This document shows positions 3,853 through 63,745 of a DNA stretch of 64,000 nt, piece after piece. Position 1 is the stretch's first letter, and every line of letters begins with the position of its first letter. Below the pieces are notes generated by a model. That model was not told the DNA's origin, searched no databases, and saw only the letters and a program-made list of their open reading frames with translations. This stretch comes from an uncultured Faecalibacterium sp. (lineage in GTDB: Bacteria > Bacillota > Clostridia > Oscillospirales > Ruminococcaceae): assembly GCA_934514285.1 (NCBI GenBank), contig CAKSXE010000002.1, forward strand, positions 18,804 to 82,803. The letters are read 5' to 3'. The translations under genes and the position numbers were made by a program.

Positions 3853-4096
3853 AACCTCTCCGTCATTGCTTCGCAATGCCACTGTCCGGGTTGCGGCACC
3901 CAGCATCCGCAGCGCTTTGCTTGCGTCTTGCTGGCCGCGGCCCCAACAGCGACTCCCTGTTTCCGCCACTGGCGGCGGTCGTCGTTGTTGCCCCTAACGA
4001 GGGGAGGCTTTGGCAGTCCTCGCAAAGTGAATGGTTTCGCCAGAGGCTCCCCTCGGTAGGGGAGCTGTCGAGCGTGAGCGAGACTGAGAGGTTGAG
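3853..4096. repeat. mosaic hairpin-rich intergenic repeat, copy A (R1 termini with an internal M2 module)
   Basis: aacctctccgtcat ... gaggggaggctttggcagtcc.cgcaaagtgaa.ggtttcgccagaggctcccct ... gactgagaggttg; shares sequence with the copies at 8.4, 20.1, 21.6 and 36.0 kb. Confidence 0.8.
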
Positions 4097-8387: not shown

Positions 8388-8528
8388 GTACAACCTCTCC
8401 GTCATCGCTGACGCGATGCCACCTCCCCTAGTAGGGGAGGCTTTGGCAGTCCCCGCAAAGTGAACGGTTTCGCCAGAGGCTCCCCTACTAGGGGAGCTGT
8501 CGAACGAAGTGAGACTGAGAGGTTGTAC
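8388..8528. repeat. mosaic hairpin-rich intergenic repeat, canonical ~140-bp R1 unit, copy B
   Basis: gtacaacctctc...gagaggttgtac terminal inverted repeats enclosing three perfect hairpins: cgtcaTCGCtgacg, cctcccctaGTAggggagg and gctcccctaCtaggggagc. Confidence 0.85.
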
Positions 8529-8711
8529 AAAGGACAGCCTGACCATGGACGAAAGGCTCAATTTTTTGCGCTCCCGGCTTGCAAAAAAGCGGCCATCAGA
8601 GTAGAATAATAACATATGTATCGTAACATGGGCCTGTATACCCAAACGCGGATACATATACCGTAATTTGTCCGCATATCCACCCATGAACAGAGAGGAA
8701 ACGTGGAGTAT

Positions 8712-19255: not shown

Positions 19256-20131
19256 ATGACAGGTTATATCACAAAAGGCATCGGCGGATTTTATTACGTA
19301 AAGACGTCGGAAGGCATCGTGGAGTGCAAGCCCCGGGGCATCTTCCGCAAACAGAAGATCACCCCCGTGGCGGGCGACGTGGTGACGCTGGAGACCGAGA
19401 ACGGCGCGGCGGTCATCGCGTCCATCGCGCCCCGGCGGAACGTCTTCGTCCGTCCGCCCATGGCGAACCTCGACGTGCTGTTCCTCGTGGCAAGCACCAC
19501 CCAGCCCACCCCCAGCACCCTCGTGCTGGATAAGCTCTCGGCCATCGCGGTGGACAAGGGCGTCCAGCCCGTCATCGTCTGCACCAAGGGCGACCTCGCC
19601 GAGGCGGAGTTCCTGCGCAGCGCCTACGAAAAATCGACCCTGCCCTTCATCCGCATCGACTACGCCACCGGCGAGGGTCTGGACGACATCAAACACTGGA
19701 TAAACGGCCGTCTCTGCGCCTTCTGCGGCAACTCCGGCGTGGGCAAATCCACCCTGCTGAACGCCCTCCTGCCCGACGTGGAGCGCCAGACCGCCGCCAT
19801 CAGCCAGAAGCTGGGCCGAGGCCGTCACACCACCCGGGAGGTGACGATTTTTGAAGCCTTCGGGGGCTGCATCGCCGACACCCCGGGCTTCGCCAGCCTC
19901 GAGGCCAGCCGGGCGGGCTTCATCCCGAAAGAGAATCTGGAACACGCCTTCCCGGAGTTCGGGCCTTACCTCGGCGCGTGCCAGTTCACCGGCTGCTCCC
20001 ACCGCTCCGAGAAGGGCTGCGCCGTCCGCGCCGCCCTCGCGGAGGGCAAGCTCTCCCAGACCCGCTACGACAGCTACTGCGCCATGTACGATGAGGTCAA
20101 GGACGTGAAGGAGTGGCAGCGACGAGGATGA
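19256..20131 (+). CDS. rsgA: ribosome small-subunit-dependent GTPase A
   Basis: Circularly permuted GTPase: TKGD...GNSGVGKST...DTPGF; C-terminal CxGCxHxxExGC zinc finger. Confidence 0.85.
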   Translation: MTGYITKGIGGFYYVKTSEGIVECKPRGIFRKQKITPVAGDVVTLETENGAAVIASIAPRRNVFVRPPMANLDVLFLVASTTQPTPSTLVLDKLSAIAVDKGVQPVIVCTKGDLAEAEFLRSAYEKSTLPFIRIDYATGEGLDDIKHWINGRLCAFCGNSGVGKSTLLNALLPDVERQTAAISQKLGRGRHTTREVTIFEAFGGCIADTPGFASLEASRAGFIPKENLEHAFPEFGPYLGACQFTGCSHRSEKGCAVRAALAEGKLSQTRYDSYCAMYDEVKDVKEWQRRG

Positions 20132-20268
20132 ACCTCTCCGTCACGGCTTGCGCCGTGCCACCTCCCCTACCGAGGGGAGGCTTTGGCAGTCCCCGCAAAG
20201 TGAACGGTTTCGCCAGAGGCTCCCCTACTAGGGGAGCTGTCGAACGGAGTGAGACTGAGAGGTTGTAC
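20130..20268. repeat. mosaic hairpin-rich intergenic repeat, R1 unit, copy C (overlaps the rsgA stop)
   Basis: ~90% identical to copy B across ~139 bp. Confidence 0.85.
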
Positions 20269-20305
20269 TAAGACGGGCCTGCCCATCATAGAAAGAAGGA
20301 AACCC

Positions 20306-20956
20306 ATGTCCCGCTGTGTTATCATTTCCGCCTGCCCGGTCAGCGCCTCGCTGGCGTCGGCTCTGCGGCCCGGCGACACCATCATTGCCTGCGACGCGGG
20401 CTACCGCAACTGTGAGCCGCTCCGCTGCCGCCCCGACATCATCGTGGGCGACTTCGACACCGCGCCCTGCCCGGCGCAGGGGGACGACGACATCATCATC
20501 CTGCCCCACGTCAAGGACGACACCGACACCGAGTACGCGGCAAAGCTGGCCTCCGAGAAGGGCTTCGACGAGGCGCTGCTGCTGGGTGTGCTGGGCGGCA
20601 GACGCCTCGAGCATACGCTGGCCAACCTCTGCACCGGCCTCGGCCTCGAACAGCGGGGCGTTCGCGCCACCCTTCTGGACGAGCGCAGCCGCATCACCTT
20701 CGTGATGCCCGGCGAGACCCGCCGCTACCCTAGGAATGAGTATTTCTACCTCTCGGTCTTTCCGATGGAGGGCAGGGCAGAGGGGGTCTCGGAGCGGGGC
20801 TCCTTCTACGAGCTGACCGACGCCGTCCTCACCGCAGGCTACCCCCTCGGCGTCAGCAACGAGTATGCCGAGGGCTCCGACTGCATCACCATCTCCACCC
20901 AGAAGGGCGCACTGGTGGTGGTGGAGACGGTGCCGGACGGGCCGATTTTGAGCTGA
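20306..20956 (+). CDS. thiN: thiamine pyrophosphokinase
   Basis: TPK family (catalytic and B1-binding domains: IIACDAGY, GDFDT); follows rsgA as in the B. subtilis yloQ-rpe-thiN order, but rpe is absent. Confidence 0.65.
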   Translation: MSRCVIISACPVSASLASALRPGDTIIACDAGYRNCEPLRCRPDIIVGDFDTAPCPAQGDDDIIILPHVKDDTDTEYAAKLASEKGFDEALLLGVLGGRRLEHTLANLCTGLGLEQRGVRATLLDERSRITFVMPGETRRYPRNEYFYLSVFPMEGRAEGVSERGSFYELTDAVLTAGYPLGVSNEYAEGSDCITISTQKGALVVVETVPDGPILS

Positions 20957-21104
20957 ACCGGAACATTCCGGGCGCGGGACGCCTATAATGGCGTATCAAG
21001 CGACGAAAGGTGGTCGGCTCTATGCAGGTGGTCGTTCTCAAAAGCCCCAAGTGCCTCAGAGGCTTGCTCCGGAGGCTGTTCGGCATAAAGAAGGAGAGAG
21101 AAGA

Positions 21105-21224
21105 GTGAAGTGTGATTTCAACCAGGCGGATGCCATGCAGGCCGCAGCAGATGACGATGTGCTGGCCTCTTCGCTGAAGCTGATGGACCGTAACAAGCAC
21201 GCGTATGAGGAACTTGCAAAATGA
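21105..21224 (+). CDS. hypothetical 39-aa protein (GTG start)
   Basis: AAGGAGAG RBS 8 nt before GTG; VKCDFNQADAMQAAADDDVLASSLKLMDRNKHAYEELAK; no family recognised. Confidence 0.25.
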   Translation: MKCDFNQADAMQAAADDDVLASSLKLMDRNKHAYEELAK

Positions 21225-21257
21225 AAGCAGTAGCCTTGTAAACTTTCTGTGCAAAGC

Positions 21258-21285
21258 TTGACTTTTGCGGGGAATGGCATATACT
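21258..21285 (+). promoter_or_regulatory. sigma-A-type promoter of antisense sRNA, TA locus 1
   Basis: TTGACT, 16-nt spacer, TATACT; preceded by the conserved gtaaactttctgtgcaa box shared by all four loci. Confidence 0.6.
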
Positions 21286-21291
21286 AAAGAT

Positions 21292-21372
21292 GGAATTGTG
21301 AGGATATTCCATTCGGTACACCAAAAAGAAAAGCCCCCAAGGAGTTGCGACCTCCCCGGGGGCTTTCCATTT
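21292..21372 (+). ncRNA. candidate antitoxin sRNA (RNAII-like), locus 1
   Basis: Runs from the promoter to the bidirectional terminator aagcccccaaggagttgcgacctccccgggggctt; contains tgtgaggatat.tccattcggtacacc, same-sense to the plus-strand text over the toxin SD/start and therefore complementary to the toxin mRNA. Confidence 0.5.
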
Positions 21373-21475
21373 AGTCGGGCTTGCGGTCCTTGTCGAATCT
21401 GTCAAGCCACTTGCAGATGTAATGCGACATTACATTTGCTACGACAGACTCCAAAATCGTGAGGATATGAATCAT
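21371..21475 (-). CDS. candidate type I toxin peptide, 34 aa (Fst/Ldr-like)
   Basis: MIHILTILESVVANVMSHYICKWLDRFDKDRKPD; hydrophobic helix, then WL and a charged tail; GGGAGGTG RBS; last 34 codons of tool ORF 21371..21727(-). Confidence 0.6.
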   Translation of the reverse strand: MIHILTILESVVANVMSHYICKWLDRFDKDRKPD

Positions 21476-21574
21476 CAGGTACACCTCCCTTCCCAAGTAA
21501 GATGGGCGGGATGAACCGCAAAACAAGTATATCATAAACTTCGGCAAAAAGATACAGGAAACGATGCGGGATGC

Positions 21575-21632
21575 CAAGGCCTCCCCTACTAGGGGAGGTG
21601 GCATCGCGTCAGCGATGACGGAGAGGTTGTAC
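21575..21632. repeat. partial inverted copy (left half) of the R1 repeat, copy D
   Basis: gccaaggcctcccctactaggggaggtggcatcgcgtcagcgatgacggagaggttgtac is the reverse complement of the R1 left arm. Confidence 0.75.
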
Positions 21633-21828
21633 AAAGACGGGCTTTGCCACAAAGGAAAAGCTCTCTCAAGACTTTCCACGATTTTTCGCGAAAAGTACCG
21701 AATAATTAACGTGCTGCCGATAAACATGAACTTTCAGCCCCCCTCAAAACCCCAAAAAAGTATGTACTGTTCCGCTCCTTCCATTTGTGCTATGCTCAAT
21801 GCATCAAACACAAATGAAAGGAGTTTTT

Positions 21829-23250
21829 ATGCAGAAAAACATGACCGACCGCACCCCGGGCAGCTACGACGACTTCGTGGCCTACCTCGGCACGGTGCGC
21901 ACCCAAGAGGAGCTGTTCTCCCGGCTGACCTACTGGTTCGCCGGGCAGGACCGCCCCGAGGACGTCCTCAGCCGCTCCGAGCTGGTGGAGGCGAGGGCGA
22001 AGGAGCTGGGCTTCTGGCAGGGTCTGACCTTCCGGATGGAGCGCTGGCTGACCGACGGCAAGAGCGAGCTGGAAGCGGTGGGCCGGGAGGAGTTCCAGAG
22101 CCGCATCGCCGAGGACTACGCCGCCTACCGGGAAAAGGCCGACGCGGCCCGGGCGCGCTTCCGGGACCGCCGCCGCGCCGCGCCCCTCAACTTCACCCCC
22201 GACTGCCTCGAGAACGTCCCCATCCAGAACGTGAGCTGGCTGGTGGAGGGGCTTCTGCCCATGGGAGAGGTGTCGCTTCTGGGTGCCGACGGCGGCACCG
22301 GCAAGGGCATCTGGCAGGCCCAGCTCATCGCCTATGTCACGGCGGGAAAGACCTCCGGCTTCTTCCCCCAGCCACCGGAGAAGACCGGCAGCGTCCTCAT
22401 CTTTTCCGGCGAGGACGACCCCGGCAAGGTGCTCAAAGCCCGCCTGACGGCGGCAGGGGCCGATATGAGCCGGGTGATGGTGGTCACCAGCGACGCCTAC
22501 TTTGCCCGCACCGGCAGCCCGCTCTGCATCCCGGACACGAGCTTTGCAAAGTACGTGGGGAAGGCCGCGCCCGCCCTCGTCATCATCGACCCGCTGCAGA
22601 GCTTTCTGCCTGCGGGGGTGGAGATGGCCAGCCGCAACCAGATGCGCAGCGCCCTGCTGCCCCTCAAAGCCCTCTGCGCCAAGCACGGCTGCGCGGCCCT
22701 CATCTCGATGCACACCAACAAGCGCGCCAACGTCTCGGGCCGCGCCCGTCTGGCCGACAGCTCCGACATCTGGGACATCGCCCGCAGCGTCCTCATGATG
22801 GGCCGCGACAAGAACAGCGAAAAGCTCTACCTCAGCCACGAGAAGAGCAGCTACTCCGCCCCGGCCCGGACGGCCCTGCTCCACATCGAGCAGGCGCAGG
22901 TGGAGGGGGTCACCACGGCGGTGGCCGTCTTTGACAGCCGCACCGACAAGAAGGACGCCGACTTCGTGGAGGAGCGCCGCGTCCGCACCGCCCAGACCAA
23001 GGAGGATACCGCGCAGGCCATCCTCAACGTGCTGGCCGAGAGCAAGCTGGGGAGTATGCCGAATACCCAGCTGAGGGCGGAGGTGATGAAGGAGATGGGG
23101 TGCAGCGAGAAAACATATAACCGCGCATATAGCGAGCTGGCGAAAAGCGGCGAGATAAAAAAGCAACAGTTCAATCAGAAAAACGGTACTCGAGGCTGGT
23201 TCACGTTTCTGGGCTACTGTAGTAAAACAAATGACCAAGTGACCATTTAA
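21829..23250 (+). CDS. RepA-like AAA_25/RecA-fold ATPase with C-terminal wHTH (plasmid/ICE replication or primase-helicase loader-type)
   Basis: Walker A LGADGGTGKG; LIFSGEDD; Walker B VIIDPLQSF; C-terminal wHTH-like tail; AAAGGAG RBS before MQKNMTDR. Confidence 0.6.
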   Translation: MQKNMTDRTPGSYDDFVAYLGTVRTQEELFSRLTYWFAGQDRPEDVLSRSELVEARAKELGFWQGLTFRMERWLTDGKSELEAVGREEFQSRIAEDYAAYREKADAARARFRDRRRAAPLNFTPDCLENVPIQNVSWLVEGLLPMGEVSLLGADGGTGKGIWQAQLIAYVTAGKTSGFFPQPPEKTGSVLIFSGEDDPGKVLKARLTAAGADMSRVMVVTSDAYFARTGSPLCIPDTSFAKYVGKAAPALVIIDPLQSFLPAGVEMASRNQMRSALLPLKALCAKHGCAALISMHTNKRANVSGRARLADSSDIWDIARSVLMMGRDKNSEKLYLSHEKSSYSAPARTALLHIEQAQVEGVTTAVAVFDSRTDKKDADFVEERRVRTAQTKEDTAQAILNVLAESKLGSMPNTQLRAEVMKEMGCSEKTYNRAYSELAKSGEIKKQQFNQKNGTRGWFTFLGYCSKTNDQVTI

Positions 23251-23403
23251 TAATATATCTACGTTGTATTTTGTCAGTTGGTCAGTTTGGCCAAGTGACT
23301 ATGATTGACCAAGTGAGTCAGTTGGTCAGCCCTGCTCACTTGGTCATCTTGGTCAAGTGAGTATTTGAACGTATCAACGATTGAAAAATGTCAGTTGGTC
23401 AGA
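23232..23403. repeat. iteron-like array of TGACCAA/TTGGTCA repeats
   Basis: TGTCAGTTGGTCAG three times; CCAAGTGA four times direct plus one inverted; begins within the last codons of the RepA-like gene. Confidence 0.75.
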
Positions 23404-23445
23404 TAACCCGCCCCTCTCAGAGCAGCAATCTCCGAAAGGTTTTTT

Positions 23446-23727
23446 ACCCTCTCAGGCGCTCCGCGCCAGCTCCCCCAGAGGGGGAGCCCTTGGCAGGCCG
23501 GGCCACTTTCGCCTGACCGCTGAAGGCCCGACGGGGCGCAAAAGGGCGGGCCTTGCTTACGGGGATAGCGGCTTCTGGACAACGCACCCTGTCAAGCTGT
23601 CGCTGGCCTAGACAGCGGAGCACTACAGCCCACGAAACGAATAAACTTTGCTCGTCCAGTGGGAACTTGCCCGACACGCCAGAGGCTCCCCCTCTGGGGG
23701 AACTGGCGAGCGGAGCGAGACTGAGAG
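23446..23727. repeat. long mosaic repeat E1 (M3 module plus an R1-like right end)
   Basis: Segment 23468-23665 is ~80% identical to the reverse complement of 27270-27460; right end ccagaggctccccctctgggggaactggcgagcggagcgagactgagaggg is R1-like. Confidence 0.75.
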
Positions 23728-23840
23728 GGCAAACCTGCGTGAATCGCCCCAAAACCTGCGCGAATGGCCGTTGCGGCTGCGGCGGGAGCCGGGTTATAAT
23801 GGAAGTGTCAAAAACACCACAGTGAACGGAGGATACGACC

Positions 23841-24365
23841 ATGAAACTGAAAAAGCTCCTTGCCCTCGCCCTTGCGGGCGTGCTGATGCTGGCCCTGCTC
23901 ACCGGCTGTTCCGGCGGCGGGACAGGAGAGGACAGGCTCATCGCGGAGGGCGTCGCCGACATCTTCAAGCGCATCTACCCGAACACCGAAGTCTCTTACA
24001 GCGTCCCCGCGCTGCCCCGCACCATCCGTCCCGCGTTCACCCCGGACTGGTTCCAGAAGGACGAGGAGGGGAACATCATCTACCTGAAGAGCGACTTCCC
24101 CATAGGCGCTGGTCAGACGCTGAAAGACTTCCTGAAAGACAGCCTGAAAGCCTACGCACAGAGCAATTTCGTGTGCTTTGCCGCCTTCGACTCCACCGGG
24201 ATGAGCGCCAGTGAGCAGGCAGAGCAGTTCGCCAGCAGTGTGCCGTCGGTCACGGTCTATATTAAAGGTGGGTCGCCCTCGGTCAACACCAAGCTGCGTG
24301 TCGGTGTCTGCCATAAGACCGTCGAGGGCCGGGAATACTGCCTTGTGGTCGTTGTCCGGGCCTGA
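23841..24365 (+). CDS. hypothetical lipoprotein
   Basis: Signal peptide with lipobox LLTGC; no family recognised. Confidence 0.55.
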   Translation: MKLKKLLALALAGVLMLALLTGCSGGGTGEDRLIAEGVADIFKRIYPNTEVSYSVPALPRTIRPAFTPDWFQKDEEGNIIYLKSDFPIGAGQTLKDFLKDSLKAYAQSNFVCFAAFDSTGMSASEQAEQFASSVPSVTVYIKGGSPSVNTKLRVGVCHKTVEGREYCLVVVVRA

Positions 24366-24394
24366 TGTGCGCTTGTAAACTTTCTGCGCAACGC

Positions 24395-24422
24395 TTGACT
24401 TTTGCGGGGAATCGCATATAAT
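24395..24422 (+). promoter_or_regulatory. promoter of antisense sRNA, TA locus 2
   Basis: TTGACT, 16-nt spacer, TATAAT; conserved upstream box. Confidence 0.6.
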
Positions 24423-24428
24423 AAAAGT

Positions 24429-24516
24429 GATAAAGGTAGAAGCAAATAGTCCATTGGCTCACCCAAAAGGAAAGACCCCCTCCCGGAGCTGCAATCTCCG
24501 AAAGGGGGTCCTTTTT
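24429..24516 (+). ncRNA. candidate antitoxin sRNA, locus 2
   Basis: Ends at terminator gaccccctcccggagctgcaatctccgaaagggggtc + T-run; gataaaggtagaagcaaatagtccattggctcacc mirrors the toxin 5' region. Confidence 0.5.
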
Positions 24517-24616
24517 AGTGCTTACGGCCCGTCAGCCATCCGTCAAGCCACTTGCAAATGTAGTAAGACGCTACATTCGCTGCGACGGACAGGATAAAGG
24601 TAGAAATAGACTCCAT
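24515..24616 (-). CDS. candidate type I toxin peptide, 33 aa (Fst/Ldr-like)
   Basis: MESISTFILSVAANVASYYICKWLDGWLTGRKH (own translation; below the 60-aa ORF cut-off); RBS GGGAGGTGAAG. Confidence 0.6.
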   Translation of the reverse strand: MESISTFILSVAANVASYYICKWLDGWLTGRKH

Positions 24617-24740
24617 TGGGCTTCACCTCCCTTCCCATAAAATGGGCGGGCAAGGCCGCAAAATAAGTATACCATAAACTTCGGCAAAAAGATACAATAA
24701 ATGCCAAGAGAAGAGTGACTGTAAACTTTCTGTGCAACGC

Positions 24741-24768
24741 TTGACTTTTGCGGGGAATCGCATATAAT
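24741..24768 (+). promoter_or_regulatory. promoter of antisense sRNA, TA locus 3
   Basis: TTGACT, 16-nt spacer, TATAAT. Confidence 0.6.
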
Positions 24769-24774
24769 AAAAGT

Positions 24775-24866
24775 ACGAAAGAAAGAATGATGGTTTCCAT
24801 TGTTCTCACCAAAGCAAAAGAAAACCCCCTCACGGAGTTGCCGCTCCGAAAGGGGGTCTTCTTTAT
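24775..24866 (+). ncRNA. candidate antitoxin sRNA, locus 3
   Basis: Terminator aaaaccccctcacggagttgccgctccgaaagggggtcttcttt; gtacgaaagaaagaatgatggtttccattgttctcacc mirrors the toxin 5' region. Confidence 0.5.
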
Positions 24867-24968
24867 TTAGTGCTTACGGCCCGTGAACCATCCATCAAGC
24901 CACTTGCAAATATAGTAAGCTGCTACATTTGCTCCGACAGACAGTACGAAAGAAAGAATACTTTCCAT
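24867..24968 (-). CDS. candidate type I toxin peptide, 33 aa
   Basis: MESILSFVLSVGANVAAYYICKWLDGWFTGRKH (C-terminus of tool ORF 24867..25268); RBS GGGAGGTGAG. Confidence 0.6.
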   Translation of the reverse strand: MESILSFVLSVGANVAAYYICKWLDGWFTGRKH

Positions 24969-25176
24969 TTTTCTCACCTCCCCTCCCGAATAAATGGGCG
25001 GGCAAGGCCGCAAACCAATTATAACATAGATTTTCGACAAAAGATATAGAAATAAACAAATCTGCCGTAATGGAAATCCCCCAAGGAGTTGCGACCTCCA
25101 TGGGGGATTTTTGTTCTGCTCCCTTCCCACCCCGCATACACTCTCATCAGAGCAAGGACAGGAAAGGAGCATCACC

Positions 25177-26718
25177 ATGGAGCTGAAAGTGTTCCGGGAC
25201 GTTCTGCCTGCGGCGGGTGCGGACTGCACCGCCAAGGCGGAGCTGCCCCTCGAGACCGAGCTACTCATCTCGGACTATCTGCCGCCGGTGCAGCGCATCG
25301 TCAAGTGCTTCGCAAAGCCGGTGGTGCTGCAAAAGCAGCTGGCCCCCGGGCGGCTGACGCTGGAAGGATATTTGCGCTGTACCGTGTATTATCAGGGCGA
25401 AGAGGGGGCGGGGCTGTGCCAGACCGAGCAGAAGCTGCCCTTTACCAAGGCCCTCGAGCTGCCCTCTTTCGCGGCCACGGCGTGGACAGCCTGCGTCGAG
25501 GGCCAGACCGAATACCTCAACTGCCGGGCCGTCAACCCCCGCCGCATCGAGGTGCGGGGAGCCTACGGGCTGGTGGTGAGCGTCCACGCCCAGCTGTCCA
25601 CCGAGGTCATCACGGCCCTCAGCGAGGGCGGCATCGAGCAGAAGCCGGTCACGCTGGCGGGGGTGCGGCGGGCCGCCACCCTCGAAAAGCTCGTGACCAT
25701 CGAGGGGGCGCTGACCTTCCCGAAGCCCCCCGCCGCCATCCTCGACATCACCGGCACCGCCGAGGTGAAAGAGCTGAAGCGGATGCAGGGCAAGGCCGTG
25801 GCGAAGGGGGTGCTGCACGTCCTCTGCGCATGGCGGGCCGAAGGGGACGCCGCCCTCCGCAGCCAGACCGCCGACCTGCCCTTCAACCAAATCGTGGACG
25901 CAGACGGCCTCAGCGAGGACTGCCGCTGCCTCTGCGTCCTCGAGCCGGTGGGCTTTGCGGCGGCGGAAGGGGAGACCGGCGAGGACGGCTCTGCTTCCAC
26001 CACCCTCACGGCCACGGCGATGCTGCGGCTGAGCGGCTGGCGACCCTACCAGCTCCAGTGCGTGGCCGACGCCTTCTCCACCCGCTTCGAGACGACCCTC
26101 ACGCCCCAGACCCTCGCCACCGAGTCGCTGCTCTGCGCGCTGGACGAGACGACGGTGCTGCGGGGCTCCGGCCCTCTGCCCGACGCCGGAGCGCAGATCC
26201 TGGCCTGCTTCGCGTCCTTCGGGCCGGTGAGCCTTATTCGAGATGAGCGGCAGGAGGGGAGAGCGTTCCTCGCGGCCCGGGCCGTGGTGTCGGCCTTTGC
26301 GGAAAACACCCTCGGGGAGATGGAGTGCTACGAAAAGGCGCTGGACTACGCCCTGCCTCTCCCCGCCGACCTCCCGCCCGAAACGGACGCCTACCCCGAG
26401 TGCTGGCTGAGCGTTCAGGACCTGCAATGCGCCAGCGCGGGCGGCGCGCTGGATGTGTCCCTCACCGTCCGGGCCGAGGGCGCAGTTCTGGCGCGGCAGA
26501 CGGCCTCTCTCGTGGGGGCGGTGGAGCTGGGCGACCCCCTCGCTCCCGCCGACCCGGAGGTGTCCCTCCGCATCTGCTACGCCCAAGCGGGGGAGGAGCT
26601 GTTCGCCATCGCCCGGCGCTACCACGTCTCGCCCGGCCAGATGCTGGCCGCCAACGACCTCCCCGACGGCACCGCCCGCCTCGACGAGGCGCGGAGACTG
26701 CTGGTGCCGGGGGTGTGA
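25177..26718 (+). CDS. DUF3794-domain protein with C-terminal LysM-like domain (SipL-like sporulation protein)
   Basis: MELKVFRDVLP start after AGGAAAGGAGC RBS; C-terminus SLRICYAQAGEELFAIARRYHVSPGQMLAANDL is LysM-like; the architecture matches clostridial SipL. Confidence 0.5.
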   Translation: MELKVFRDVLPAAGADCTAKAELPLETELLISDYLPPVQRIVKCFAKPVVLQKQLAPGRLTLEGYLRCTVYYQGEEGAGLCQTEQKLPFTKALELPSFAATAWTACVEGQTEYLNCRAVNPRRIEVRGAYGLVVSVHAQLSTEVITALSEGGIEQKPVTLAGVRRAATLEKLVTIEGALTFPKPPAAILDITGTAEVKELKRMQGKAVAKGVLHVLCAWRAEGDAALRSQTADLPFNQIVDADGLSEDCRCLCVLEPVGFAAAEGETGEDGSASTTLTATAMLRLSGWRPYQLQCVADAFSTRFETTLTPQTLATESLLCALDETTVLRGSGPLPDAGAQILACFASFGPVSLIRDERQEGRAFLAARAVVSAFAENTLGEMECYEKALDYALPLPADLPPETDAYPECWLSVQDLQCASAGGALDVSLTVRAEGAVLARQTASLVGAVELGDPLAPADPEVSLRICYAQAGEELFAIARRYHVSPGQMLAANDLPDGTARLDEARRLLVPGV

Positions 26719-26746
26719 GCGAAGTTGTAAACTTTCTGCACAGCGC

Positions 26747-26774
26747 TTGACTTTTGCGGGGAATGGCATATACT
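26747..26774 (+). promoter_or_regulatory. promoter of antisense sRNA, TA locus 4
   Basis: TTGACT, 16-nt spacer, TATACT. Confidence 0.6.
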
Positions 26775-26780
26775 ATAGAT

Positions 26781-26868
26781 AGTGAAAGTAGAAATTGAGC
26801 TAGTCATTTGGCTCACCAAGAAGAAAACCCCCTCCCGGAGTTGCCGCTCCGAAAGGGGGTCTTCTTTT
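26781..26868 (+). ncRNA. candidate antitoxin sRNA, locus 4
   Basis: Terminator aaaaccccctcccggagttgccgctccgaaagggggtcttctttttt; tgaaagtagaaattgagctagtcatttggctcacc is ~35/40 identical to the plus-strand text over the toxin SD/start. Confidence 0.5.
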
Positions 26869-26970
26869 TTAGTGCTTACGGCCCGTGAACCATCCGTCAA
26901 GCCACTTGCAGATGTAGTAAGATGCTACATTTGCTGCGACGGACAGAATGAAAGTAGAAATACTAGGCAT
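26869..26970 (-). CDS. candidate type I toxin peptide, 33 aa
   Basis: MPSISTFILSVAANVASYYICKWLDGWFTGRKH (C-terminus of tool ORF 26869..27069); RBS GGGGGTGAGAC. Confidence 0.6.
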   Translation of the reverse strand: MPSISTFILSVAANVASYYICKWLDGWFTGRKH

Positions 26971-27065
26971 TTGTCTCACCCCCTTCCCAATAAAATGGGC
27001 GGGCAAGGCCGCAAAACAAGTATACCATAAACTTCGCCAAAAAGATACAGGAAGCGATGCGGAAT

Positions 27066-27506
27066 GCAAAAGCCTCTCCCCTTGGGAGAGGTGTCACCGA
27101 AGGTGACGGAGAGGGCAGGCCCGGCACGAAAGAGCCGCTGCACAGCGATAAGCAGGCTCTTTGTCAGAGCGATACTATCGCTGGGCTTTCGCTTCTCCGT
27201 CAGCATCCTTGCCCTCTCAGTCGGGCTTGCGCCCGCTAGCTCTCCCAAAGGGAGAGCCTTTGGCATGTCGGTCAGGCTTCCACTGGACGAGCAAAGCACG
27301 ATGTCTCGGAAACAGTAGTGCTCCGCTGTCTAGGCTCACGGCAGCTTGACAAGGCGCGCTTGTCCAGAAGCTGCTGCCCTCTGTAGCAAGGCCCGCCCTT
27401 TTGCGCCATATCGGGCCATAGGCAGGCAGTAGGAAGTGGCCCGGCCTGCCAAGGGCTCCCCCTTTGGGGGAGCTGGCGAACGAAGTGAGACTGAGAGGGC
27501 AACCCC
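27066..27506. repeat. long mosaic repeat E2 (inverted M3 module plus an R1-like end)
   Basis: Contains the inverted ~200-bp homolog of E1 and the R1-like end ccaagggctccccctttgggggagctggcgaacgaagtgagactgagaggg. Confidence 0.75.
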
Positions 27507-27631
27507 ATAAGTACGACTTATGACGAAAATATGAATAAAAACTTAAAAAAACTCTACCGTTCCCGGTTCCGGTCTGCTATAATTTTTTATGCTTGTTACA
27601 AAACCTGAAGTGAAGTAAAGGAGCCAGGAAT

Positions 27632-29026
27632 ATGATAAAAAGCGCTGAACTGGAAAATTCGGCATACGAGTTTGAGGCGAAAATGCCGCTGCGCCACGCG
27701 GTCCCGCTGGGCCTGCAGCACGTGTTCGCCATGTTCGTGGGCAACCTCACCCCGCTGCTCATCATCACCAGCGCCTGCGGCCTCGCGGGCGGTGAGTTCG
27801 CAGACCTGCAGGTGAGCCTGCTGCAGAACGCCATGTTCGTGGCGGGCATCGTCACGCTGGTGCAGCTGTACGGCCTCGGCCCTGTGGGCGGCAAAGTGCC
27901 CATCATCATGGGTACCAGCTCGGGCTTCCTGGGCGTCTTCAACAGCGTTGCCGCCACCATGGGCGGCGGCGTCACGGCCTACGGTGCCATGATGGGCGCG
28001 TCCATTCTGGGCGGCCTGTTCGAGAGCGTGCTGGGCGTCTTCCTGAAGCCCCTGCGCAAGCTGTTCCCGCCGGTGGTCACCGGCACGGTGGTGCTGTCCA
28101 TCGGTCTGTCCCTCATCTCCGTGGGCGTCAACTCCTTCGGCGGCGGCAACGCAGCCAAGGACTTCGGCTCGGTGGAGAACCTGCTGCTGGCCGTCTTCGT
28201 GCTGGTGGTCATCCTCTTCTTCAAGCACTGGACCAAGGGCTTCCTCAGCTCTTCCTCCATCCTCGTGGGCATCATCGCGGGCTATCTGGCAGCCATCGTC
28301 ATGGGCTTCGTCCTGCCCACCACCGGCGTCACCGCCGACGGCGTGGAGTTCACCAAGGCATGGGTGCTGAACTGGAACAAGGTCGCTGAGGCCAGCTGGT
28401 TCGCCATCCCGAAGCTGGTGCCGGTCAAGATCGTCTTCGACCTCCGCGCCATCCTGCCCGTCATGATCATGTTCATCGTCACCGCCGTGGAGACGGTGGG
28501 CGACATCTCCGGCGTCATGGAGGGCGGCATGGGCCGCGAGGCCACCGATAAGGAGCTGAGCGGCGGCATCATCTGCGACGGCCTCGGCTCCACCGTCGCC
28601 GCCTGCTTCGGCGTCCTGCCCAACACCTCCTTCAGCCAGAACGTGGGCCTCGTGGCCATGACCAAGGTGGTCAACCGGGGCGCACTGGCCACCGGCGCCA
28701 TCTTCCTGATGCTCTGCGGCCTCATCCCCAAGCTGGGCGCACTCATCTCCATCATGCCGCAGGCCGTTCTGGGCGGCGCTGCCGTCATGATGTTCTCCTC
28801 CATCGTGGTGTCGGGCATCCAGCTCATCACCAAGGAGAAGATGACTCCCCGCACCCTGACCATCGTCTCTGTGGCGCTGGGCGTGGGCTACGGCATGGGT
28901 GCAAACGCCAAGATCCTCGCCAACACCCCCCAGTTCGTCCAGCTCATCTGCGGTGAGAGCGGCATCGTGCCGGCTGCCTTCGTGGCCATCCTGCTCAACT
29001 GCCTGCTGCCCCGCGATGAGAAGTAA
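27632..29026 (+). CDS. nucleobase:cation symporter-2 (NCS2) family permease (uracil/xanthine-type)
   Basis: Multi-TM protein with NCS2 signature regions (GTSSGFLGV, NVGLVAMTKV). Confidence 0.75.
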   Translation: MIKSAELENSAYEFEAKMPLRHAVPLGLQHVFAMFVGNLTPLLIITSACGLAGGEFADLQVSLLQNAMFVAGIVTLVQLYGLGPVGGKVPIIMGTSSGFLGVFNSVAATMGGGVTAYGAMMGASILGGLFESVLGVFLKPLRKLFPPVVTGTVVLSIGLSLISVGVNSFGGGNAAKDFGSVENLLLAVFVLVVILFFKHWTKGFLSSSSILVGIIAGYLAAIVMGFVLPTTGVTADGVEFTKAWVLNWNKVAEASWFAIPKLVPVKIVFDLRAILPVMIMFIVTAVETVGDISGVMEGGMGREATDKELSGGIICDGLGSTVAACFGVLPNTSFSQNVGLVAMTKVVNRGALATGAIFLMLCGLIPKLGALISIMPQAVLGGAAVMMFSSIVVSGIQLITKEKMTPRTLTIVSVALGVGYGMGANAKILANTPQFVQLICGESGIVPAAFVAILLNCLLPRDEK

Positions 29027-35936: not shown

Positions 35937-35960
35937 GTTGGTGCTTGTAAGGGAAACTGA

Positions 35961-36257
35961 GGAGGGGAGGCCTTGGCATTTCGTAAAGCTTGGCCTCTTC
36001 GCCAGAGGCTCCCCTACTAGGGGAGCTGTCGAACGAAGTGAGACTGAGAGGTTGTACGAAGGGAAGCCTGACCGTGAGCCGCTGCTGGACTCAACCTCTC
36101 CGTCAGCGCTGACGCGCTGCCACCTCCCCTACCGAGGGGAGGCTTTGGCAGTCCCCGCAAAGTGAACGGTTTCGCCAGAGGCTCCCCTACTAGGGGCAAC
36201 GGCGATGACCGCCGCCAGCGGCGGAAACAGGGAGTCGCTGTTGGGGCTGCGGCCAGC
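35961..36257. repeat. mosaic intergenic repeat copy E (R1 right half + full R1 + inverted M2 module)
   Basis: Two successive ...gagactgagaggttgtac / caacctctccgtca... units, followed by ggggcaacggcgatgaccgccgccagcggcggaaacagggagtcgctgttggggctgcggccagc (reverse complement of the copy A insert). Confidence 0.8.
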
Positions 36258-36363
36258 AGGATGCAAGCGACAGCGCACAGCACAATAAACAAACAAAAGC
36301 GCCGCCGACGGCCTCAAAACCGTCAGCGGCGCTTTGCTTATTCAGTCAACAGCGGTCAATGGA

Positions 36364-53435: not shown

Positions 53436-53511
53436 GCTACTGTGGCTCAGCCGGTAGAGCAGCTCACTCGTAATGAGCAGGTCGTCCGTTCGAATCGGAT
53501 CAGTAGCTCCA
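53436..53511 (+). tRNA. tRNA-Thr (anticodon CGT)
   Basis: Cloverleaf drawn by hand: acceptor GCTACTG/CAGTAGC, D-arm GCTC-AGCCGGTA-GAGC, anticodon stem GCTCA/TGAGC with loop CTCGTAA, T-arm GTCCG-TTCGAAT-CGGAT, discriminator T, encoded CCA. Confidence 0.85.
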
Positions 53512-53566: not shown

Positions 53567-53697
53567 GTTTTATCTGTAAGTAACTACGGAATTGCCAAGT
53601 GGCATCGTTAAGGACAAAATCATAGCCAAGCTATACTCTTTTGTTGACATGGCTTTACCTGCGTGATACAATGCAGATTGTAAGGGGGCGAAAACCG

Positions 53698-54060
53698 ATG
53701 AACGAACGTATTAAAAAAATTCTTGAAGAGCTTGGATTAAAAAGAGTTGACTTTGCAAACAGGTTGCACATTTCACAGCCGTTTGCATCCGAACTTTGTT
53801 CTGGTGCTAAATCTCCCAGTGAACGTACAATTAGTGACATCTGCCGCGAATTTGGCGTCAATGAATCATGGCTGCGCACCGGAGAAGGTGAAATGTTCGC
53901 AGCGCCAACTTCCGCCAGCGATAAAATTATGGACTTTGCTGCAGAGATTGCACGTAATGACGACAAAGAATTTCGTAAGCGATTTGTTGTCATGTTGGCC
54001 GACTTAGAGCCGAAGGACTGGGAACTACTCGAACGTATAGCAGAAAAGCTGACAAAGTAA
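53698..54060 (+). CDS. XRE-family HTH transcriptional regulator
   Basis: MNERIKKILEELGLKRVDFANRLHISQPFASE HTH_3; AT-rich islet. Confidence 0.7.
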   Translation: MNERIKKILEELGLKRVDFANRLHISQPFASELCSGAKSPSERTISDICREFGVNESWLRTGEGEMFAAPTSASDKIMDFAAEIARNDDKEFRKRFVVMLADLEPKDWELLERIAEKLTK

Positions 54061-54204: not shown

Positions 54205-54594
54205 ATGGATAAGCTGCATGAAAAATATAACTATCTTAAGGAAGCTGTGAAGCGGCTGCGTGAGGCATTGGACGATTATAAGAAATACCCGCTGGATTCT
54301 GTGCGGGATGGTGCCATCCAGCGCTTTGAGTTTTGCACGGAGCTTGCATGGAAAACGATGCGTGAATATCTGCTCGACCAAGGATATACTAATATCAACA
54401 GCCCGAAAGAGGTCATCAAGCAAGCTTTTGCATTCGGCATGATAGAGGACTCGAAGATGTGGTTGGAGCTGCTGAATGACCGCAACTTGACCAGCCATGT
54501 CTATGATGAGGCAACTGCAAGAGCGATTTTTGACCGCATTAAGAGCCAGTATCTGCTGCTGTTCGATAAGTCGCTGGCTTATATGCAGGAGTAA
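54205..54594 (+). CDS. HI0074-family nucleotidyltransferase substrate-binding (HEPN-like) protein, orphan
   Basis: QRFEFCTELAWKTMREYL pattern of the NTase_sub_bind/HEPN family; no partner minimal nucleotidyltransferase ORF nearby. Confidence 0.6.
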   Translation: MDKLHEKYNYLKEAVKRLREALDDYKKYPLDSVRDGAIQRFEFCTELAWKTMREYLLDQGYTNINSPKEVIKQAFAFGMIEDSKMWLELLNDRNLTSHVYDEATARAIFDRIKSQYLLLFDKSLAYMQE

Positions 54595-62551: not shown

Positions 62552-63745
62552 TCATTTGTCGGCGTTCTCCATATCGGCAAGGCTCGAAACATCCACCCGG
62601 AAGCCTTCCTGTGCGGCACCCTCAAAGGCTTCCATCGGGCCGTCCGGTGCATCATTTTCTGGCTCATCCGACGGAGAATCGGCAAATTCCCCTTTGCTCT
62701 CCCCTGTCTCCTTTGACGTTGTATCCAAGCTTGCCTTCTTGACTTCACCCAGCGGATTCTGCTCAATGGCTGCACGCACCTGAAATTCCTGCAGATGCGT
62801 ATAAATTTGAGTTGTGCCGACGCTGCTGTGGCCCAGAAGCTGTTTGAGGGTCAGAATATCCACGTTGCCAGTCTGATACATCAGCGTTGCGGCAGTATGG
62901 CGGAGTTTATGGGTGGAAAAACCGCGCAGACCCGCTGCTTTCATGGCACCGGTGACCAGCTGCTCTACCCTGCGGTTTGAGATTCGCTCCTTGCGCCGCC
63001 GGGTGATAAAGACCGCTCTCTCTTTGGGGTTCAGGCCCTCCATCGTGTTGCGCTTGTTCAGATAGATCTGCAATGCCTCCTTGCAGGCATCATTCAGGTA
63101 GACCATCCGCTCTTTATGGCCTTTGCCGAACAAACGGATCTGCCGCTGTTCCATGTCGATGTCGCCGAGGTCCATGCCGACAAGCTCCGAAAGACGCATC
63201 CCGCAGTTCAGAAACAGCACGACCATGCAGTAATCCCGCTCCGGGAAGTCGCTCTGGGTCTGGGTACTTTCCAGAAGGTCCATGGACTGCTCTGCCGTCA
63301 GGTACTTGGGAAGGACTTTGTCCTGCTTGGGCGGCTTGATGGATGCCGTCGGATTCTCTTTGAGCAAATCTACCTGATTGACCAGATAATCATAAAAGCC
63401 GTGGAGGCTTGCCAGCCGCCGGGCCGTCGAAGACTTTTTGTTGCCGCACTCGCTGTTCAGAAAGTACAGATACTCATAAACGTCTTCCTTGGTCACACTG
63501 CCCCAGAAAGCCGTATCAAGCCCCTTGGGGTCGATGTCCTTTATCTCGGTATCGTCTGTTACAAGGCCGCGCCGACGCTTCATAAAACGGCTGAAGCTGC
63601 GCAGGTCGCAGTAATAGCTGAAGGCCGTGTTGGGGCTTTTGCCTGCGATGACTTCCAGATAGCGCACATACGCGACGATGTCCGGCGAAGCGTCATCAAA
63701 AGGCTTATGTTTTTCGGGATTTTTTTCGTCCAGATAAATCGACAT
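62552..63745 (-). CDS. tyrosine-type site-specific recombinase (Xer-like) with acidic ~85-aa C-terminal extension
   Basis: N-terminal SAM-like core-binding domain; catalytic R, HxxR and Y (HKLRHT, TQIYTH); long D/E-rich tail after the catalytic Tyr. Confidence 0.75.
   Translation of the reverse strand: MSIYLDEKNPEKHKPFDDASPDIVAYVRYLEVIAGKSPNTAFSYYCDLRSFSRFMKRRRGLVTDDTEIKDIDPKGLDTAFWGSVTKEDVYEYLYFLNSECGNKKSSTARRLASLHGFYDYLVNQVDLLKENPTASIKPPKQDKVLPKYLTAEQSMDLLESTQTQSDFPERDYCMVVLFLNCGMRLSELVGMDLGDIDMEQRQIRLFGKGHKERMVYLNDACKEALQIYLNKRNTMEGLNPKERAVFITRRRKERISNRRVEQLVTGAMKAAGLRGFSTHKLRHTAATLMYQTGNVDILTLKQLLGHSSVGTTQIYTHLQEFQVRAAIEQNPLGEVKKASLDTTSKETGESKGEFADSPSDEPENDAPDGPMEAFEGAAQEGFRVDVSSLADMENADK

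Follow-up and report, generated by a model that had tools for sequence, protein, structure and literature searches.

An orphan initiator-origin module with a strain-variable specificity cassette, probably of satellite descent, at a likely insertion hot spot in Faecalibacterium prausnitzii

The 64-kb stretch of Faecalibacterium chromosome analysed here (the window, to which coordinates refer unless a relative is named) carries, between 21.0 and 27.5 kb, a patch in which a gene for a replication initiator-like ATPase (rep) is followed directly by an array of short iterons. We consider it probable that this patch is an insertion hot spot holding an intact, satellite-derived initiator-origin module, which has been retained vertically under selection, has had its specificity cassette swapped among strains, and is maintained in a still active or recently active state. 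The original prediction had described the patch as a decayed integrated plasmid or integrative and conjugative element (ICE). All of the features that it listed were found in place by sequence, Pfam and repeat scans, but our results suggest a different origin and a different relationship among them.

The rep-origin module and its DNA-binding code

The rep gene (21829..23250, + strand) encodes, as judged from Pfam, a PDB search and AlphaFold, a helical N-terminal domain (amino acids [aa] ~10-117, predicted with confidence), a RepA-type helicase core of RecA fold (aa 126-300 and beyond) and a C-terminal winged helix (aa 391-461). The earlier description of a RepA-like AAA_25 ATPase with a winged-helix tail is therefore upheld: the match to PF13481 spans aa 126-300 at E=1.1e-26 (94 bits, against a cutoff of 27), the Walker A motif is intact and GADGGTGKG is invariant in homologs. 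RepA of RSF1010 (1g8y, E=0.0017) is the sole PDB sequence match of Rep, at ~20% identity, and also the best fold match of the ATPase core, followed by RadA, KaiC and DnaB; no superfamily 3 (SF3) helicase is among the top fold or sequence matches of the core. Our structural statements are made at the level of domains and from a separate model of the C-terminal domain. In that model (predicted local distance difference test score [pLDDT] 76-90), helices at aa 391-404 and 412-423 precede a recognition helix at 427-440 and wing strands at 443-449 and 455-461, and its nearest structural neighbours are winged helices of the PadR/LmrR, MarR and ROK types (TM score 0.5-0.62). The combination of ATPase and winged helix is widespread, with 380 cluster representatives at E<=1e-30; at E<=0.001 the number of representatives is 21,516, and in both sets many have an extra N-terminal part of ~300 aa. 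As rep has the GC content of its surroundings (68%) and the low-GC dips of the patch lie in toxin-antitoxin (TA)-like modules, miniature inverted-repeat transposable elements (MITEs) and the AT-rich origin, composition is uninformative on the foreignness of the gene.

The predicted iteron array beside rep stands out clearly from background. Seven occurrences of the 11-mer TGACCAAGTGA (up to one mismatch) are found in the window, all within 23232-23401, against a chance expectation of 0.81; none of 100 shuffles reached seven. With an eighth copy containing two mismatches, the array comprises eight iterons of 12 bp, some on each strand, and two AT-rich stretches around which they are arranged. 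It starts within the 3' end of rep, where iteron 1 (23232-23243, +) lies inside the last codons, and continues through the first AT-rich stretch (23244-23272) to a central group formed by iterons 2 (23273-23284, -), 3 (23288-23299, +), 4 (23306-23317, +), 5 (23317-23328, -), 6 (23335-23346, -) and 7 (23350-23361, +, the copy with two mismatches). The second AT-rich stretch (23362-23389) and iteron 8 (23390-23401, -) complete it. A single strand of the array folds (z=-6.4) because the iterons are inverted. Nearly all relatives with readable downstream sequence share this layout at the stop codon, namely an iteron in the last codons, AT-rich DNA, inverted and direct iterons, AT-rich DNA and a last inverted iteron, while the iteron sequence differs in each relative. 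By sequence and comparison, rep and the array form a complete initiator-origin module, at about 21798-23426, of mobile-element descent.

Co-variation between protein and DNA indicates how this module may work. The relatives comprised 15 loci from species-representative genomes, the 80 gut metagenome loci that scored best among 349, and two of four IMG/VR loci, both close relatives at 56-60% identity. Reduction of 92 loci gave 43-46 distinct protein/iteron pairs, in which the recognition helix co-varies with iteron positions 3-5 and the wing with the iteron 3' half. Recognition helices with (G/V/A)TYN occur with the iteron core TGATAAA, those with KTYN with TG(A/G)CCAA, PTYK with TGATACA, RTY(I/T) with TGGCAAA, TYE with TGGCGAA, CTYD with TGCGTAA and RTFD with TTGCG(A/G)T. 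Wings of the class K(K/R)xIRQ.DGKN accompany a 3' half of (G/C)TT(C) and those of the class KxQ(L/F/I)xQ..G.RGW a 3' half of GTG(A); one apparent exception, locus L025, has a third variant (KFVINQ..H) paired with GTT. The associations are raw, without correction for phylogeny; they represent repeated independent instances because helices and wings reassort among loci. One helix is found with either wing class, and the two iteron halves track helix and wing independently. A natural swap is provided by loci L013 and L014, whose Rep proteins differ at 16 of 451 residues. The wing is identical in the two; five of the differences fall in the recognition helix and another six among the nine C-terminal residues, a stretch encoded by iteron 1 itself. 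Between these loci the iteron core changes from TGATAAA to TGGCGAA, and GTGA is the 3' half in both.

Recognition of the iterons by the winged helix is very probable, and the co-variation across the 92 loci bears out the suggestion that rep and iterons belong together. In the mechanism that we propose, the recognition helix (aa 427-440, motif x-T-Y-X-R-A-Y) would read positions 3-5 of TG[NNN]AA and the beta-wing (aa 443-461) would read the 3' half, GTGA or GTTC; both assignments derive from co-variation. Rep bound to the iterons would then allow the AT-rich DNA to melt and would load itself as a helicase, by analogy with the Rep protein of Staphylococcus aureus pathogenicity islands (SaPIs).

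Comparison with strain UT1 (L001; complete genome NZ_CP170812), in which the locus is chromosomal and has the same synteny as the window, points to long retention of the gene. Codons 1-425 of rep are 98% identical between the two, with a synonymous divergence (dS) of 0.069 and a ratio of nonsynonymous to synonymous divergence (omega) of 0.15; seven flanking genes have dS values of 0.066-0.113 and omega values of 0.09-0.29, and the polymorphism ratio pN/pS among 77 distinct rep alleles is 0.22. As dS equals that of the neighbours and omega is 0.15-0.22, rep has been inherited vertically under constraint over the whole time since the strains diverged. The word "decayed" does not suit an intact gene on which purifying selection acts as it does on the neighbouring genes.

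The end of the module behaves differently. A hypervariable specificity cassette of ~330 bp (23108..23426, +) includes codons ~427-473 of rep, for the recognition helix, wing and tail, together with the whole iteron array. From aa 426-473 through the last iteron, the window and UT1 are ~50% identical, and their iterons are TGACCAAGTGA and TGGCAAAGTTCC, respectively. Ten loci with different alleles have identities of 0.97-1.00 over rep nucleotides (nt) 1-1250, of 0.49-0.65 over nt ~1300-1600 and of 0.94-0.99 over the next 300 nt, which extend into a lipoprotein gene; the remainder of that gene is mostly at >=0.9, with dips to 0.78. Nearly all of the 80 metagenome relatives with identifiable flanks are at the same locus, and at least 14 specificity classes are represented. 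This pattern suggests that the ~330-bp helix/wing/iteron cassette is swapped among strains inside conserved flanks.

Native genes and independent insertions

The flanks of the window are ordinary housekeeping genes, with PrkC, RsgA and thiN on the left and an NCS2 permease, HGSNAT and flavodoxin on the right. A comparison with a relative lacking the patch had been proposed, and locus L022, from a related species whose SipL is 72% identical to that of the window, provides such an empty site. There, RsgA, thiN, a spoVM-like open reading frame (ORF), SipL and the permease are contiguous, with no inserted material and with gaps of 386 nt (thiN to sipL, the small ORF within) and 175 nt. Homology of this locus to the window covers 20292-21105, then 25156-26660, and then 27508 onward. 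The inserted material therefore forms two separate intergenic accumulations, at 21106-25155 and 26721-27507, around native spoVM-sipL, and not the one coherent element envisaged earlier, since homology resumes at sipL between them. The same contiguity makes SipL a native gene and not cargo of an element, as had been considered. In other strains the same gaps contain differing numbers of TA modules, MITEs and lipoprotein genes. From these sequence comparisons we interpret the patch not as a single element but as a hot spot for insertion into the chromosome of Faecalibacterium prausnitzii.

The native genes are readily assigned. The left flank, thiN (thiamine pyrophosphokinase; 20249..20956, +), matches Pfam TPK_catalytic and TPK_B1_binding and is syntenic in L001, L016, L021 and L022. 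It is followed by the SpoVM-like ORF of 28 aa (21022..21108, +), which is conserved in L022, matches NCBIfam SpoVM_broad at E=7e-5, below the curated cutoff, and is the last conserved sequence before the insert. The sipL gene (25177..26718, +) encodes SPOCS (PF12673, E=6.8e-19) and LysM domains, of which the LysM match is weak (E=0.0012, below the Pfam cutoff); in L022 it has thiN/spoVM on one side and the permease on the other, and it is syntenic across Faecalibacterium species at 67-98% identity, with an omega of 0.13 against UT1. On the right, the NCS2 permease (27632..29026, +; Pfam Xan_ur_permease, E=2.9e-80) is likewise placed by synteny. Faecalibacterium is regarded as non-sporulating. 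The spoVM-like ORF nonetheless sits natively just upstream of sipL, and this spore-coat morphogenesis pair is retained, with purifying selection evident in the omega of SipL.

Inserted sequence begins with a 39-aa ORF (21105..21224, +; VKCDFNQADAMQAAADDDVLASSLKLMDRNKHAYEELAK), which has a good ribosome-binding site and is 95-100% conserved in L001, L016, L017 and L021 and absent from L022; no family in Pfam, NCBIfam or PADLOC matched it. Four modules of ~330 nt, resembling type I TA loci, start at 21237, 24374, 24720 and 26725. Each has a hydrophobic ORF of 33-34 aa on the minus strand and, by consensus matches, a strong plus-strand promoter (TTGACT-16-TATAAT/TATACT) and a bidirectional terminator. 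Module 1 (TA1; 21237..21560) contains repeat families D2, D3 and D8, a promoter at 21258-21285 (+), a terminator at 21328-21368 and a toxin ORF at 21371-21475 (-) with the motif YICKWLD. Modules 2 and 3 together span 24374..25046, with toxin ORFs at 24515-24616 and 24867-24968 (-), and module 4, absent from L022, spans 26725..27060, with a toxin ORF at 26869-26970 (-). These modules resemble par(pAD1)/Fst in their 33-34 aa hydrophobic toxins, convergent promoters and shared bidirectional terminator, the latter features again as consensus matches, and to that extent their description as Fst-like holds. They differ in that no Fst model matched the toxin peptides tested in Pfam (E up to 0.01) or NCBIfam (E up to 1) and no TA RNA family was found by Rfam, which at its gathering score detected one tRNA across the window. 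Nor are they part of the replicon: among the sequences examined they are restricted to the thiN-sipL locus family, where TA1 is always beside rep, and none occurs in complete elements of the rep-ori family or in other orphan contexts. A proposed fifth, eroded TA module at 23410-23445 dissolves into two other features. Its first 16 nt, CCCCTCTCAGAGCAGC, are the conserved rep-ori end in relatives that lack TA modules, and the remaining part is the left edge of the MITE E1.

E1 (23427..23730) is a MITE-like insertion of 304 nt between the origin and the lipoprotein gene, and E2 (27060..27507) consists of MITE-like repeats in the opposite orientation that are absent from L022. The two do contain inverted copies of ~290 nt, 82-86% complementary, as had been observed. 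Their interpretation as the ends of an element fails: they are dispersed MITEs, the pair brackets native sipL, and E1 is strain-specific, being absent from L032, where, with the same rep allele, 11 nt take its place. E1 copies are found at many other positions in L001 and L021, with number and place varying among strains, and its terminal 52-nt module recurs in the window at 4038, 8471, 20211 and 36000. Outside the patch, MITE-like and repetitive extragenic palindromic (REP)-like repeats are also seen in intergenic positions at ~4038-4091, 8388-8547, 20131-20284 and 35960-36275, and these families end many short metagenome contigs.

The gene downstream of E1 (23841..24365, +) encodes a variable lipoprotein of 174 aa with a signal peptide and an LLTGC lipobox, read from the sequence. 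In most of the 80 metagenome loci it starts ~1717 nt after the rep start, ~100 nt past the origin; it is absent from L001. Its family has 1758 matches, with a Faecalibacterium protein as the only source-named member and no Pfam domain recorded. Its paralogs have this signal peptide too; in other strains, some of them precede rep. Variable lipoprotein genes on either side of rep are seen in L113 (3330-3968 and 4152-4808), L019 (24-713) and L002 (1879-3048), and several lipoproteins of the locus have nearly the same signal peptide, MKLKKLLALALAG...C, and no known domain. The TA-like modules and MITEs occupy the hot spot independently of the module; the lipoprotein gene, which is physically linked to rep-ori, is either cargo of the module or another independent occupant.

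What had suggested a plasmid is thus partly real. The ATPase groups with RSF1010 RepA in a family of plasmid helicases, iterons beside rep are classic for plasmids, and all four TA-like modules of the 64-kb window lie in the patch, TA1 always beside the rep locus. Of the proposed core of Rep, iterons and TA, the rep-iteron pair stands, whereas TA modules are absent from the complete elements that carry this rep family. No relaxase, type IV secretion system (T4SS), partition gene or integrase is present in the patch, to judge from its ORF list and Pfam for par genes and from searches of its substantial ORFs (rep, lipoprotein and SipL) against conjugation families; its relatives at 55-67% identity sit instead in satellite-like elements of 8.1-8.7 kb integrated at tRNA genes. 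The plasmid-database search that had been suggested for Rep returned 22 PLSDB records, the best at ~30% identity and none covering 80% of the protein. A plasmid origin of rep was rejected in view of tblastn matches that in PLSDB and a phage database were all at <=30% identity. The best small "plasmid" match, OY725856 of Subdoligranulum, is an unrelated MOBQ/serine-recombinase element. Free circular molecules of 2.5 kb were considered, as many rep metagenome contigs are about that long, but all 16 contigs checked lacked a terminal overlap; the ends of these 16 fall in MITE, TA or lipoprotein-signal repeats.

Elsewhere in the window, a tRNA-Thr(cgt) gene at 53436 is followed, up to 55000, by a low-GC stretch (45-52%) with a small helix-turn-helix (HTH) protein (53641-54060) and a 129-aa ORF (54205-54594), and a tyrosine recombinase gene lies at 62552-63745 (-). 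These may belong to another small island, separate from the rep locus.

Complete relatives and comparable systems

Relatives of Rep at 55-67% aa identity lie between tRNA-Tyr(gta) and tRNA-Thr(tgt) or adjoin tRNA-Gly. Three of them, L014 (1477-9567), L005 (563-8910) and L025 (7374-16143), are complete elements of 8067, 8324 and 8746 bp, respectively, in the 3' end of tRNA-Thr(tgt). All three are bounded by a 24-nt direct repeat, TGGAGCTGGTGACAGGAGTTGAAC, which is identical to the tRNA-Thr 3' end. Read in order, they carry an integrase, a cI-like repressor, cro-like HTH proteins, the rep-ori module, several small ORFs, a scaffold, a major head protein and a sigma-like regulator. The integrase is a tyrosine recombinase (phrog_1, 1e-40), the repressor has a double HTH, and L026 has an AlpA-like protein in place of the cro-like HTH proteins. 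A scaffold (3.5e-16) and a major head protein (phrog_422, 1e-52) are encoded by L005, L014, L025 and L026, and cI-like/cro-like genes are present in L003-L005, L010, L011, L013-L015, L025 and L026. No terminase, portal, tail or lysis gene and no relaxase or T4SS was found in the complete elements. Hence, they are neither autonomous phages nor ICEs, and, lacking a terminase, portal and tail, they depend on a helper to complete the particle. By gene order and by the layout of rep followed by an iteron origin, they look like phage satellites of the phage-inducible chromosomal island (PICI) type. In the literature searched there was no prior description of satellite-like elements of 8.1-8.7 kb integrating into tRNA-Thr in Faecalibacterium. 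One metagenome-assembled genome (MAG), MGYG-HGUT-00589, contains both the complete satellite L005 (TGATACA) and an orphan rep-ori, L007 (TGATAAA); such differing specificities are what replicon incompatibility predicts, in a single case and with the proviso that bins can be mixed.

We propose that the module in the window descends from elements of this kind, and that all element genes except rep-ori have gone while the module has been kept vertically at the locus. In tblastn searches with E up to 10, the integrases of L014 and L005 found nothing in 21-27.5 kb, no cI-like or cro-like remnant was detected in the patch, and 16 proteins from complete relatives and neighbouring loci left no remnant there; an XRE-like match at 54.7 kb belongs to another region. 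The sole tRNA of the window is that at 53436, and there is no tRNA attachment (att) site at the patch. Other orphan copies exist, with L008 and L009 near recR (L008 adjoining a dnaX-like ORF) and L007 between CTP synthase and a metallo-hydrolase. L003, L004 and L012 are at the tRNA site, and there a cI-like repressor alone was detected in L003 and L004 and none in L012. The array of L004 (11356-11640) is eroded, with degenerate GACCAAG/GGCCAAG copies left and a top 7-mer count of 2, and illustrates true decay of an origin in this Rep family.

Several well-studied systems resemble the module in part. RSF1010 (IncQ) RepA shares its AAA_25 core and is the best fold match. In RSF1010, RepA is a helicase alone, and a separate protein, RepC, binds the iterons; Rep, in contrast, is fused to its own winged helix and an extra N-terminal domain. 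The initiators of iteron plasmids (pPS10 RepA, F RepE, R6K pi and RK2 TrfA) and lambda O are winged-helix proteins that act on iterons beside an AT-rich unwinding element, and the lambda origin overlaps the initiator gene. Unlike Rep, these initiators contain no helicase and recruit DnaB, and their iterons are of 17-22 bp and mostly direct repeats; no sequence homology to Rep was detected. Closer in organization are SaPIs and other PICIs, in which the initiator is a helicase with a C-terminal winged helix for short iterons (a feature predicted here) and the origin lies directly 3' of rep with opposed iterons around an AT-rich region. The complete relatives further share with PICIs an integrase and repressor leftward and cro/xis, rep-ori and capsid-related genes rightward. 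However, SaPI Rep is an SF3 helicase, whereas the core here is RecA-fold and of the AAA_25/RSF1010-RepA type. There is also no primase gene here, the iterons are of 11-12 bp with a two-part code, PICIs are ~15 kb in contrast to 8.1-8.7 kb for the Faecalibacterium elements, and the module in the window is an orphan without integrase, repressor or att site. Several Rep/ori specificities are known within one family of SaPIs and PICIs (PMC9371898, PMC6092414). In the balance of these likenesses and differences, the module would be a PICI-like rep-ori built on a RepA-type helicase, orphaned and with a strain-variable specificity cassette.

The capsid genes of the complete relatives invite a further comparison, which concerns the relatives alone, as none of those genes is in the window. 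SaPIbov5, PmCI172 and the capsid-forming PICIs (cf-PICIs) likewise have their own capsid-type genes and need a helper (PMC6092414). The complete relatives are much smaller than these satellites, at 8.1-8.7 kb, and lack the set of portal, protease, adaptor and terminase genes of cf-PICIs. Faecalibacterium reportedly produces particles of ~40 nm that resemble gene transfer agents (GTAs) and package fragments of 8.4-8.9 kb (bioRxiv 10.1101/2024.11.15.623857), a length that the size of the complete elements matches. In Bartonella, a phage-derived run-off replication (ROR) origin amplifies variable genes for packaging by the Bartonella GTA, BaGTA (PMC2697382, PMC3610622). The likeness lies in a phage-derived chromosomal origin beside variable surface or host-interaction genes in a GTA-producing genus; it is one of analogy and not of homology, and local amplification or packaging at the locus described here is hypothetical.

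Alternative explanations and significance

Several observations weigh against an active, maintained module. What we say of DNA binding, origin firing and helicase activity is by inference, AlphaFold models full-length Rep poorly (mean pLDDT 60) and the metagenome sample is biased toward intact genes. The 150 nt upstream of rep are poorly conserved among strains (identity 0.6-0.73), and no cI or cro regulator is left beside rep in the window. In-frame internal deletions in other strains remove the Walker A motif or the ATPase core (aa 65-159 in P0089, with loss of Walker A; aa 207-304 in P0091 and P0099; aa 47-124 in P0071 and P0073); hence, the helicase is dispensable in at least some strains. 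Short direct repeats flank at least two of these deletions, the C-terminal DNA-binding tail is retained throughout, and the P0091 allele comes from a complete F. prausnitzii genome. The cassette polymorphism, moreover, could arise by recombination with passing satellites and without selection at the locus.

Such observations leave some room for the view that the module is an inert relic, a dead remnant of a satellite that was once resident at the locus or recombined into it, whose intact look is due to its youth or to repeated overwriting by gene conversion from active satellites and whose cassette diversity mirrors that of satellites. We regard this as unlikely, although it is the alternative to be taken most seriously. 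The absence from the patch of integrase, repressor, cro and capsid remnants, the lack of a conserved promoter upstream of rep, the deletion variants and the similar orphans elsewhere (L007, L008/L009 and L003/L004/L012) would all be expected of a relic. Against it, the helicase part has the dS of housekeeping neighbours with an omega of 0.15-0.22, and since satellite Reps are 55-67% identical, recent conversion would show outside the cassette. In every allele, moreover, the iteron array is still complete (5-13 copies) and fits its protein.

The orphan may be kept because it interferes or is incompatible with incoming satellites, or for the local amplification that it would bring; it may also do nothing. 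A speculative version of the second, to which we assign a low probability, is that a domesticated origin might fire in situ and over-replicate the hypervariable lipoprotein/TA locus, which would enrich it in the GTA-like particles of ~8.5 kb; the complete relatives would be sized for those capsids, and cassette turnover would reflect conflict or incompatibility between origin and satellites. Slightly less probable is that the locus serves in incompatibility or immunity, with the array, Rep or both hindering satellites or phages of the same specificity by titration, handcuffing or premature firing, and with negative frequency-dependent selection driving the cassette polymorphism. A polymorphic cassette sharply bounded in near-identical flanks is typical of conflict loci, the in-frame deletion variants retain the DNA-binding tail, and one MAG combines a TGATACA satellite with a TGATAAA orphan. 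However, that MAG is one example of co-occurrence, and the apparent bias toward in-frame deletions is subject to ascertainment; no PADLOC defence model matched Rep, the lipoprotein, the 39-aa ORF, two of the four toxin ORFs or SipL. Finally, a single decayed plasmid or ICE, in which Rep, iterons and Fst/par addiction modules are bracketed by E1 and E2 with SipL as cargo, is very improbable, given that SipL and spoVM are native, the insert is split over two gaps, E1 and E2 are multi-copy MITEs whose number and position depend on the strain, and neither plasmid databases, the gene content of the patch, the TA-free complete elements nor the short rep contigs give it support.

In summary, our comparisons point to an intact initiator-origin module of probable satellite descent in which a specificity cassette appears to be exchanged among strains inside conserved flanks. 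Few commensals of the human gut are as abundant as F. prausnitzii, and little of its mobile-element complement has been charted. The analysis points to a family of very small (8.1-8.7 kb) satellite-like elements in Faecalibacterium, not previously described in the literature searched, that integrate into tRNA-Thr and encode capsid proteins, and the locus offers a natural combinatorial initiator-DNA code, in which the helix would specify one iteron half and the wing the other. It also cautions that chromosomal Rep, iterons and TA modules should not be called a plasmid before synteny has been checked. A replication module can evidently persist as an intact, selected and hypervariable orphan at a fixed chromosomal site, and such orphan origins raise the question of their role, be it interference, local amplification or nothing.

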